A stretch of DNA of 64,000 nt from an uncultured Flavobacteriaceae bacterium (GCA_964494625.1 CAZBRT010000004.1:10578-74577), one strand, 5' to 3'. Counted from the first letter of the stretch, positions 49,072-62,233 are shown. Numbers and translations: made by a program. The notes: generated by a model not told the origin, from the sequence alone.

Positions 49072-49148
49072 CGGAGCGTAGCGCAGCCTGGTAGCGCATC
49101 AGTCTGGGGGACTGGGGGTCGTGGGTTCAAATCCCGCCGCTCCGACCA
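49072..49148 (+). tRNA. tRNA-Pro (anticodon GGG)
   Basis: Hand-folded 77-nt cloverleaf. The acceptor stem pairs CGGAGCG with CGCTCCG. The D arm is GCGC-AGCCTGGTA-GCGC. The anticodon arm is TCAGT-CTGGGGG-ACTGG, with G37. The T arm is GTGGG-TTCAAAT-CCCGC. CCA is encoded. Confidence 0.93.
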
Positions 49149-53888: not shown

Positions 53889-54311
53889 TCAGGCCAACTT
53901 GACCAATTTCGCCCTCTGCCCAGCCCGTATCCAGACGATTGCATTCTGGCCAAACTGCCGCCCGAGCTGACGCGCCATGGTGAGGTCGACACCGCAAACT
54001 AACAGGCTTTCTTCTACCGGCCACTCTCCATCGTCACCTTTGCCATAGCCAGCCACTGTCATAAGCCGCAGGCGCTTCGTAGTGGACAGAAGCCTTTTGT
54101 GGGCCGCACGATTGTGAACCTTGCTCCGCGCAGCGCTTGCCGGGTTCCAAGCGGTCACAAAGGCCGCAGAGTGCACTTGAAGCCTGCCTAGAAGCCGGTC
54201 GACTTCAGCTGATCGTTTGCCGACGCGGGCAATGATGTCACGCGGCTTCTGGCGGATCACATAAGCGGTCGCCCGATAAGCTGCCTCAAGTCTGGTCGCA
54301 CGTGCAAACAT
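53889..54311 (-). CDS. DUF3293-like protein
   Basis: FVTAWNPAS...GYGKGDDGEWPVEESLLVCGVDLTMARQLGRQFGQNAIVWI fits the DUF3293 pattern as I remember it. Start set to MFARATR at 54311. Confidence 0.65.
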   Translation of the reverse strand: MFARATRLEAAYRATAYVIRQKPRDIIARVGKRSAEVDRLLGRLQVHSAAFVTAWNPASAARSKVHNRAAHKRLLSTTKRLRLMTVAGYGKGDDGEWPVEESLLVCGVDLTMARQLGRQFGQNAIVWIRAGQRAKLVKLA

Positions 54312-54450
54312 GGGCAAACCCCTCACGTTCAGCCCACACGCTTCGCCATCAAGCATGTCGTGGACCTACTTCGCTTCACGATCACACTCTGACATCCGTT
54401 GCTGGCGCTGGCGGCGCCGTAGCAAGCGTATCAACCGGCTTGAAGATCGC
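54283..54450. repeat. direct repeat copy A (168 bp)
   Basis: Near-identical to 55182-55350. The last 64 bp are identical, and the middle 25 bp or so diverge. Covers the 3' end of the clamp-like gene, the intergenic spacer and the DUF3293 start. Confidence 0.95.
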
Positions 54451-55110
54451 CGTGACAGGCTTGGCGCTCATCGGCATGAAAACGCCATACCAACCCGGCG
54501 CTACCGACGCGGTGACAAGCGACGGTGCCTGCTGGTGATTTGGTCCGCCCTCGTTCCTGCCAAACGTGATGGCAATGTGGTGCCCGCCGCTCGCCTTTTG
54601 CAGGCGGATCAGCAGGGCGGGGTTGAGGCCGATTGACGGCGGGGTGCCGGGCTCGCTGACATCCGGCAGCACGCGCGCCCAATCAGGGAACGTGCCGTCA
54701 ATCTCGGCAGGCGTCTCGATGACGGAGAGCACGGCCCCATCGCTCGCGGTGAGCGAGATGCGCATCGGGCGGGAGCGACCATCGGCAGTGGCAGGCGTCG
54801 TATATTCCAGCCTGACGAGGGCCGTCACGGGGGAGTAGCGGCCACCCTTGCAGGCGGCCTTCAGCATCGCCGCGATCTGCTTGATAGCGTCGGTCGAGAT
54901 GATGATCTCGCGCTCGCTGGTGATCAGGTCGCCGTCGGTTTCTTCGGTCAGGCGGTGGACTGACATGATGTGGCCATCGGTGGCCGCAAGCCAGATGTCG
55001 CCGTCTCCGTCGGGCGCGCTGATGCAGACGCCGTTCAGGTAGTATTGGGTCTTTTCATTGCTGGCGGCGTGGGCGGTCTCAATCAGTTTCTTTGCAGGCA
55101 CGATCCACAT
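54382..55110 (-). CDS. DNA polymerase III beta (sliding clamp)-like protein, two-domain length
   Basis: QYYLNGVCIS...WLAATDGHIMSVHRL and IDGTFPDWARVLP resemble the DnaN YLxGV...ATDGHRL and FPDYxxVIP motifs. It is only 242 aa, versus about 370 for DnaN. Confidence 0.6.
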   Translation of the reverse strand: MWIVPAKKLIETAHAASNEKTQYYLNGVCISAPDGDGDIWLAATDGHIMSVHRLTEETDGDLITSEREIIISTDAIKQIAAMLKAACKGGRYSPVTALVRLEYTTPATADGRSRPMRISLTASDGAVLSVIETPAEIDGTFPDWARVLPDVSEPGTPPSIGLNPALLIRLQKASGGHHIAITFGRNEGGPNHQQAPSLVTASVAPGWYGVFMPMSAKPVTAIFKPVDTLATAPPAPATDVRV

Positions 55111-55181
55111 GTGTTTTCTCCGGTGTCGAGAGGAAAATTATGCAGGTGGGAGGGGATTTCTCCCCCCGTTGCTGTCAGGCG

Positions 55182-55350
55182 GCCTCAAGTCTGGTCGCAC
55201 GTGCAAATAGGGGCAAACCCCTCATGTTCAGCCCTCGCGTCACGGCAAAAAAGCAAGTTGCGGACCTAGTTCACTTCACGATCTCGCTCTGACATCCGTT
55301 GCTGGCGCTGGCGGCGCCGTAGCAAGCGTATCAACCGGCTTGAAGATCGC
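55182..55350. repeat. direct repeat copy B (169 bp)
   Basis: Matches 54283-54450. Covers the 3' end of 55276-56046 plus a relic of the DUF3293 start region in which the ATG is destroyed (gcaaacatggg becomes gcaaatagggg). Confidence 0.95.
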
Positions 55351-56046
55351 AGCAAGGTTTGCGGGGAACTCTCCGCTCCAGCTCGATTGCGGCCCGATAG
55401 AAAGGATGTCGTCCAGCGCCGCCAGCAGGCTGTCACAAGTCTCAGCAAGGCCTGCGGCCCCTTCAGCTGCCTTCTGCAGAAGATCCAGCCCGTTCTCCGG
55501 TGATGCGCCCGATGCACACACCGTCAGATCGGCGAGATCGGCTACGGCCAGCGCCTTGTGCCAATGAGCCTCGACAATCTTTGCCGAGGATGGCGCACGT
55601 CCTAGCAATTGCGCTAGCATGGTCGCAATCTCGTAGGCCGTCTCTGCCGCTTGAAGCTCCTCCGCATCGGGATAGGGTTTCGCCTTGCGGCAATCATCCG
55701 CCGTGTCGTTCTGGCCGATGCTGTCCAGCGCCGCAGGAATGAACTGGGTGACAAGCAGCGTGACGAAGCGCCGGTACCGGGCTTCTTCGTCAGCGTCACT
55801 GCCGCGCGAGCCCAGCATGCGGTGCAGGTAGGGAAGGAGCCGTTGCCGCTCCGCATCCGGCAGCCCGTCATTGATCCCCCGGCAGACGGAAGCGATTACG
55901 GGCGAGGTGCACGGCCCCGCCTTGTCCGAGTGCGCATAGCCCGCGATGAAGTTGGCGAGTTCCATCGCACAGAGCTGACCCGAACCCTCGTCATGCGCAC
56001 CTGCGTTCAGCGTGATTTCGGGGAACATGGCTTGTAGGTTGATCAT
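55276..56046 (-). CDS. hypothetical protein
   Basis: 256 aa. The N-terminus is NAGAHDEGSGQLCAMELANFIAGYAHSDKAGPCTSPV. The C-terminal 20 aa (IFKPVDTLATAPPAPATDVR) are identical to the clamp-like protein tail. Confidence 0.6.
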   Translation of the reverse strand: MINLQAMFPEITLNAGAHDEGSGQLCAMELANFIAGYAHSDKAGPCTSPVIASVCRGINDGLPDAERQRLLPYLHRMLGSRGSDADEEARYRRFVTLLVTQFIPAALDSIGQNDTADDCRKAKPYPDAEELQAAETAYEIATMLAQLLGRAPSSAKIVEAHWHKALAVADLADLTVCASGASPENGLDLLQKAAEGAAGLAETCDSLLAALDDILSIGPQSSWSGEFPANLAAIFKPVDTLATAPPAPATDVRARS

Positions 56047-61999: not shown

Positions 62000-62233
62000 T
62001 CATCCTGTCGCCTGCACCAGCTTTGCCGTCTTCTTGTCATAGACGAAGCCGGTGATCGTGCCGTCCTTGATCTTGGCGATGGCTTCGTCGATCACAAAGC
62101 GCGGGAGGTCGCCGACGACGCGGTAGAGGCGATGTGTCGGTTTGGGGCTCTTCGCAGGTTCGGGCTTGGTTTTTTGTTTTTCGGCATGGAAAGGGCTCCT
62201 CTTTCTTTGCCGCAGACCATTCCGCGGCTTCAT
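62000..62233 (-). CDS. small basic hypothetical protein (start and frame uncertain)
   Basis: 77-aa reading from the ATG at 62233, with no Shine-Dalgarno. A strong SD (GAGGAG) precedes an out-of-frame ATG at 62187. Confidence 0.3.
   Translation of the reverse strand: MKPRNGLRQRKRSPFHAEKQKTKPEPAKSPKPTHRLYRVVGDLPRFVIDEAIAKIKDGTITGFVYDKKTAKLVQATG

Follow-up and report, generated by a model that had tools for sequence, protein, structure and literature searches.

We analyzed a 64,000-nucleotide (nt) stretch of DNA from an uncultured Flavobacteriaceae bacterium (GCA_964494625.1, CAZBRT010000004.1:10578-74577), referred to here as the window, in which a gene for a protein resembling the bacterial beta sliding clamp is bracketed by a long direct repeat. 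Three genes are found at this locus, all on the minus strand and in the order 256-amino-acid (aa) gene (55276-56046), clamp-like gene (54382-55110, encoding 242 aa) and DUF3293 gene (53889-54311, encoding 140 aa). The question addressed here is how the repeat and the clamp-like gene between its two copies came to lie there.

The direct repeat and the three genes

Repeat search and MAFFT alignment located the two copies at 54280-54450 (copy A, 171 nt) and 55179-55350 (copy B, 172 nt), ∼899-900 nt apart. Both were read along the minus (coding) strand, on which each copy contains the last 21 codons of a gene, a stop codon, a spacer, and then a ribosome-binding site with codons 1-11 of DUF3293. 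Copy A holds the tail of the clamp-like gene, its stop, the spacer and the working DUF3293 start; copy B holds the 3' end of the 256-aa gene, its stop, the spacer and a relic of the DUF3293 start. Global alignment over 172 columns gave 19 mismatches and one indel (20 differences, 88.4% identity). In a BLAST search of the whole 2.97-Mb genome with one copy, the other copy was recovered at E = 2.4e-57 and no third copy was found. Comparison of the island with itself, which the initial annotation had called for, agreed with this result: only the two copies were detected, confined to the clamp-like locus. The direct repeats that the annotation had placed around the clamp-like gene are thus real, as judged by repeat search, MAFFT and BLAST.

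The differences between the copies are unevenly spread along the coding strand (chi-square p = 3e-6). None was found in the 64 nt of the tail-coding block (55287-55350 in copy B, 100% identical to 54387-54450), 16 fall in the 55 nt of the centre, which holds the stop codons and the spacer, and four in the 53-nt block with the ribosome-binding site and the first 11 DUF3293 codons. In copy B this last block (55179-55231) is the relic, in which the start codon ATG has become CTA at 55208-55210, so the destroyed ATG noticed earlier is confirmed; the reading frame of the relic ends at the stop of a lost upstream gene. Two of the four differences in the block sit in the start codon (probability by chance ∼0.02). 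The pattern suggests that there may have been selection to silence a leftover 11-codon reading frame ahead of the clamp-like gene.

Both the 256-aa and the clamp-like proteins end in AIFKPVDTLATAPPAPATDVR, followed by V-stop in the clamp-like protein and by ARS-stop in the 256-aa protein. An identical tail of 20 aa had been noted in the initial annotation; the identity holds, and the length is 21 residues. The shared tail was not found in any other protein of the same genome.

The 256-aa open reading frame has no Pfam match and belongs to a large uncharacterized family (2,872 representative homologues, no Pfam model). Family members carry an N-terminal C-x-M-E...H-S-D-x-P-x-C-T-x-P-V motif, a low-complexity Ala-rich middle and a conserved C-terminal helix ...LDxxLxIGP. 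The closest homologue is ∼44% identical over part of its length. Local HMMER alignments of the homologues extend to query residues 236-240, and the shared tail begins at residue 233/234. In the MAFFT alignment, ANLAAIFKPV of the 256-aa protein was aligned to the family C-terminal helix ...RVxAYxxLV. The AlphaFold2 (AF2) model of the protein has a helix at 227-235, with a predicted local distance difference test score (pLDDT) of 61-66 past residue 231.

The product of the third gene matches Pfam DUF3293 at 78 bits. The ATG at 54309-54311 is supported as its true start by an alignment of homologues, which puts the family N-terminus exactly there, and by a GAGGGG ribosome-binding site; the conserved AAYRAT motif begins at the repeat end. 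The closest DUF3293 homologues are ∼43% identical, and no neighbor is conserved around distant DUF3293 genes. None of the three genes matched a PADLOC model, and membership in a known defense system was rejected.

The clamp-like protein scored 26.8 bits against Pfam DNA_pol3_beta_2 (the central clamp domain; cut-off 27), and it matches beta clamps in the PDB only from clamp residue ∼135 to the C-terminus, i.e., over domains II-III. A full bacterial beta sliding clamp (DnaN; three clamp domains, ∼366 aa) was rejected, as the protein has 242 aa and domains II-III only. The clamp fold ends at ...GVFMPM, near residues 214-216, equivalent to the MPL/MPM end of bacterial clamps. This end point was placed by the PDB sequence alignments; the AF2 model of the clamp-like protein (3-sequence alignment, pLDDT 34) was not used.

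Among 5.8 billion protein clusters, the only close clamp relatives were P0002 (84% identity) and P0003 (79%). The dN/dS ratio (non-synonymous to synonymous substitution rates) of the clamp-like gene is 0.26-0.28 against these relatives, compared with 0.20 between the relatives themselves, and the gene is still under purifying selection. Clamp-alignment scans of collections of genome contigs and metagenome contigs returned distant relatives only (24-46% identity), which are uninformative on the junction. Environmental metagenome contigs, including several of freshwater or marine origin, commonly encode distant clamp relatives at ∼30% identity.

The two joins and the donor-type module

The close relatives P0002 and P0003 do not carry the shared tail; they end in ...AINKPKAVAQKRKEAVAA. 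They are collinear with the window protein to ...EPVTAI, after which they read NKPKAVAQKRKEAVAA and the window protein reads FKPVDTLATAPPAPATDVRV. On the contigs of the relatives (L005 and L006), a gene ending in ...IAEAA-stop is followed by a G/C-rich hairpin and then by the clamp gene. In L006 the upstream gene scored 20.1 bits against Pfam DUF932, under the cut-off of 23. This arrangement of a DUF932-like gene followed by a clamp gene, seen in both L005 and L006, is called here the donor-type module. In the module (L005:965-1141, L006:1351-1578) the clamp stop overlaps, as ATGA, the start of a Cys-rich open reading frame of 58-75 aa that has no Pfam hit; this small reading frame was not carried into the window. 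A scan of the bacterium's own genome detected no DUF932 gene, so the donor is foreign.

BLASTN homology between the window and L005/L006 is limited to 55158/55186 to 54436/54437 (86% and 82% identity). At its two ends, this donor homology overlaps the repeat homology by 8 nt (7 matching) at join 1 and by 14 nt (12 matching) at join 2.

Join 1 lies at 55175-55186 (minus strand) and consists of GAG GCC GCC TGA, the last three codons and the stop of the DUF932-like gene, with the homology GAGGCnGC at 55179-55186. The parental sequences are gccgaggccgccTGA in L006 and cttGAGGCAGCTtat in DUF3293. DUF3293 reads AGA CTT GAG GCA GCT TAT, the donor-type gene reads GCC GAG GCC GCC TGA, and the window reads AGA CTT GAG GCC GCC TGA. 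Both parents read this homology in one and the same frame, as E-A-A. The last 12 nt of the DUF932-like gene and a degenerate G-rich/C-rich hairpin (55148-55167, minus strand; GGGAGGGGAGAAATCCCCTCCC in L006 aligned with GGGGGGAGAAATCCCCTCCC in the window) remain directly after copy B, ahead of the clamp start.

Join 2 lies at 54437-54450 (minus strand) on the homology GCGATCnnCAAGCC, of which 12 of 14 nt are common to the clamp relatives and the 256-aa gene; it encodes A-I-x-K-P in both. The clamp relatives read GGC GAT CAA CAA GCC G, the 256-aa gene reads TGC GAT CTT CAA GCC G, and the window clamp gene reads GGC GAT CTT CAA GCC G. Codons 1 to ∼222 of the clamp-like gene derive from the DUF932-clamp module as inserted cargo, and the last 21 residues of its product are borrowed.

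Both joins are in frame and each rests on a short homology, with the homology of each parent ending within a few common bases at the join, as is characteristic of illegitimate recombination. The recombination between junction sequences that had been proposed at the outset did not hold up on this point: homologies of 8 and 14 nt (7 and 12 matching) indicate illegitimate joining, with no pre-existing shared junction. The proposed addition of the clamp-like gene between the 256-aa and DUF3293 genes was borne out by the different tail of the relatives, by the surviving DUF932-like codons and hairpin, and by the 256-aa family homology that runs into the tail. The clamp-like gene is the incomer, because the stretch spanning the join is the 256-aa gene's own sequence but is foreign to the clamp gene; likewise, the tail is native to the 256-aa gene because the family homology crosses join 2 into the tail.

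Origin of the repeat

We consider it probable that the repeat is the scar of short-homology illegitimate recombination and that it is not a working device. In the ancestral island, the 256-aa gene ending ...AAIFKPVDTLATAPPAPATDVR... would have been followed by the spacer and DUF3293. The insert is ∼730 nt from a different mobile module with a DUF932-like gene, a hairpin and a clamp-like gene. Join 1 connects DUF3293 codon 11 (R-L-E-A-A, GAGGCAGC) with the final codons of the DUF932-like gene (E-A-A-stop, GAGGCCGC); at join 2 the clamp gene, near its end (A-I-N-K-P, GCGATCAACAAGCC), passes into the terminal part of the 256-aa gene (A-I-F-K-P, GCGATCTTCAAGCC). The stretch is present twice because the point of re-entry into the island (the 256-aa gene end) lies 171 nt upstream of the point of exit (DUF3293 codon 11). 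The repeat period of 899-900 nt equals the donor segment (∼730 nt) plus the duplication (171 nt). As a consequence, the clamp-like protein lost the basic tail seen in its relatives and reads into the tail of the 256-aa gene, and the clamp gene is preceded by a dead DUF3293 start in which the ATG was later changed to CTA. The duplication reaches 107 nt beyond the stop codon, through non-coding DNA into the next gene, which points to an event at the DNA level and not to a peptide module. The swapped part is an appendage, since the clamp fold ends at ...GVFMPM.

Two routes could lead to this arrangement. In the first, put at somewhat less than even odds, replication would have switched templates once: the fork would have left the island at GAGGC, copied donor DNA as far as GCGATC and resumed on the island 171 nt behind the point it had left. 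In the second, only slightly less probable, two related islands that had already diverged would have been linked in a tandem array or cointegrate and undergone two separate short-homology deletions or crossovers; copies A and B would then have been diverged orthologues from the outset. Template switching (fork stalling and template switching, or microhomology-mediated break-induced replication) has been described mostly in eukaryotes. Its signature is seen here, in that the inserted DNA is flanked by a duplication and each breakpoint carries a short homology, but it is a candidate only, as the copies are now 12% diverged and a one-step origin is not provable.

The uneven divergence of the three blocks at first sight favors the second route, or later gene conversion. 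This evidence becomes weaker when selective constraint is taken into account: neither copy codes for protein in the centre, the relic can vary freely in copy B alone, and in the tail only synonymous sites can do so. Under such constraint, the rough p value is ∼0.04 for the tail block and ∼0.06 for the relic. A recent patch of recombination or gene conversion would best account for the identity of the 64-nt tail; selection on the peptide would not account for it, because synonymous sites would not be preserved in that way. Divergence in the centre amounts to ∼0.15 substitutions per site per lineage, similar to half of the synonymous distance (dS, 0.32) between the window clamp gene and that of L005, so the event is probably old.

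Several observations weigh against a short-homology origin. The close clamp relatives are just two, on short contigs of 1.2 and 1.6 kb. The copies differ by 12%, unevenly, and a single event with simple neutral drift thereafter is only a marginal fit, even with the constraint taken into account. An empty site, in which the 256-aa gene is followed directly by DUF3293, was present in no collection searched, and the ancestral state is reconstructed. The 7-12-nt homologies, which conserve amino acids, could also partly reflect selection among many recombinants instead of the mechanism.

The 171-nt unit might alternatively be a recurrent island boundary, i.e., a portable junction module for gene swaps by homologous recombination, with the clamp cassette arriving as a circle or fragment with its own diverged unit, integrating Campbell-style and able to pop out via the 64-nt core. 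Divergence between the copies is what would be expected if one of them had traveled with the cargo, the perfect 64-nt core is a good substrate for homologous recombination, and the OLD nuclease gene of the same island is also bracketed, by a 102-nt repeat from the 3' end of a gene. The two bracket repeats, however, share no sequence. The cargo is itself joined to the unit through short homologies, and the DUF932-clamp module from which it derives does not contain the unit. The unit is also absent from the rest of the genome, from plasmids and from 400 genomes of the class, and the tail, back-translated as a degenerate DNA pattern for PVDTLATAPPAP, had no match in metagenome contigs. Neither the locus nor the clamp protein was matched in plasmid and phage collections, the DNA search of the 400 genomes of the class returned chance-level fragments only, and none of the three genes was found in 300 genomes of the order, nor any close relative of the 256-aa or DUF3293 genes. 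We regard a portable module as unlikely, and the modular gene-shuffling site raised in the initial annotation found no support in the genome, plasmid, class, order or metagenome (tail) searches.

A selected peptide is also conceivable, with the 21-residue tail serving as a docking or targeting peptide for a common partner such as the neighboring vWA proteins. The tail has no difference in 64 nt against 20 in the remaining repeat, open frames are kept through it in both genes, and the clamp join is in frame. Nevertheless, all synonymous sites are unchanged as well, which selection on a peptide would not protect, and the final residues already differ (V-stop versus ARS-stop). Nor would a peptide account for the 107 nt of duplication past the stop, for the unrelated tail of clamp relatives at 79-84% identity, or for the restriction of the tail to these two proteins in the genome, with no metagenome contig match. 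The tail is a Pro/Ala/Thr-rich appendage outside the clamp fold, and model confidence for it on the 256-aa protein is moderate (pLDDT 61-66). The docking peptide suggested earlier is for these reasons very unlikely, and the shared tail is a by-product of recombination. An assembly artefact, in which mis-joined reads produced the duplication, is the least credible of the alternatives and may be set aside as extremely unlikely: the copies differ at 20 positions including an indel, their flanks are unique, a 729-nt gene with independent relatives lies between them, and the contig is 192 kb long.

Known classes of repeat-associated elements were also compared with the locus and rejected. For an integron attC cassette, the genome has five PF00589 matches, of which the only one on the contig is the integrase of the island, 26 kb away and next to attR; folds of both copies were no better than shuffled sequences (z = -1.0 and -0.5), and there are two copies only. 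A diversity-generating retroelement does not fit, since RVT_1 occurs nowhere in the genome (97% complete), the coding block has no difference, and the 20 differences are of all base types and located after the stop codon. The target duplication of a transposon or insertion sequence is expected to be ∼2-15 bp, and 171 nt is too long; no transposase is present and the insert encodes only the clamp-like protein. A 6-nt TGACAG/CTGTCA match at the insert ends, considered as transposon ends, is absent from L005 and L006. A site-specific att element was dismissed for want of a recombinase between the repeats and of an empty site, the real att repeats of the island being 49-nt tRNA-Pro ends. Rfam and terminator scans gave no relevant hit for a small RNA, riboswitch or terminator in the repeat.

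Short-patch double illegitimate recombination has been described in bacteria (bioRxiv 10.1101/2023.11.22.568220). As in bacterial short-homology illegitimate recombination, the foreign DNA here is joined at few-base homologies at both ends, without a recombinase site or transposase. In contrast, the recipient join points at this locus are crossed, re-entry being upstream of exit, so that 171 nt are duplicated instead of deleted or replaced, and the insert is a whole gene with both joins in frame. Older work in Acinetobacter is said to have dealt with homology-facilitated and double illegitimate recombination during DNA uptake. In the Hendrix model, the mosaicism of phages and islands arises by illegitimate recombination at gene boundaries followed by selection, and lambdoid phages have so-called boundary sequences. 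The locus resembles such mosaicism in that the joins are at or near gene ends, open frames are kept and the modules come from unrelated elements; it differs in that both parental junction copies are kept, which are rarely preserved, and that no conserved boundary sequence common to relatives was found. Prophages such as phage 21 and e14 in Escherichia coli icd integrate into the 3' end of a protein gene and supply a replacement for it. Here too, a diverged direct repeat of >100 nt from a gene 3' end brackets an insert and the upstream gene is intact. Unlike these prophages, the insert has no integrase or att core, the repeat enters the start of the next gene, and the outer ends are short-homology joins.

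The island and a second bracket repeat

The clamp-like locus is part of a 32.7-kb island bounded by 49-nt repeats of the 3' end of tRNA-Pro(GGG). The attL copy lies at 49100-49148 (plus strand) and its perfect repeat at G000:C4:92381-92429, beyond the window. A tyrosine integrase gene is located outside the window at G000:C4:91113-91601, beside the second tRNA-Pro copy; because it sits at the far end of the island, no integrase was seen next to the tRNA. The island also holds genes for an OLD-family nuclease, a T5orf172/MUG113 protein, a helicase and a MerR-vWA/vWA pair, and it looks like a defense-type island. A 315-nt stretch of the island at G000:C4 ∼88637-88946 (window-equivalent ∼78060-78370) is 85% identical to G000:C3:463602-463913.

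A second bracket repeat of 102 nt (93% identity) was found at 62005-62106 (minus strand), with its partner at window-equivalent 64688-64789 (G000:C4:75265-75366), past the window end. On the minus strand both copies encode PRFVIDEAIAKIKDGTITGFVYDKKTAKLV, which is the C-terminus of the 405-aa T5orf172/MUG113 gene in one copy and of a dead gene fragment in the other, downstream copy. The pair flanks the 584-aa OLD nuclease gene (62926-64680, minus strand) and ∼820 nt more. The start of the OLD gene overlaps the stop of the 405-aa gene, and the G+C content of the OLD region is 0.56 versus ∼0.62. The two bracket repeats show that the island underwent rebuilding of this kind more than once.

Because there are two such repeats, a small probability of systematic cassette exchange stays alive. 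The island would then gain and lose single genes by an undescribed route that duplicates 100-170 nt of the target, the 64-nt core would permit a reversible pop-out, and the locus would be a gene-shuffling site of defense islands. We consider this quite unlikely; if it were true, the clamp junction would be a genuine gene-exchange site of defense islands.

The locus is a new example of a known process and not a new molecular system. The process itself is ordinary, and its scar has been preserved in an unusually legible form. Cases are rare in which a horizontally inserted gene can be followed base by base through both of its joins; here the module of donor type, the short homologies at the joins, the inactivated start codon and the exchanged protein tail are all in view. 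Shared peptide tails in neighboring genes, as this case cautions, need not be functional modules. The clamp-like gene and its borrowed tail illustrate the mosaicism of islands and the accidental gain of a new C-terminus by a protein.

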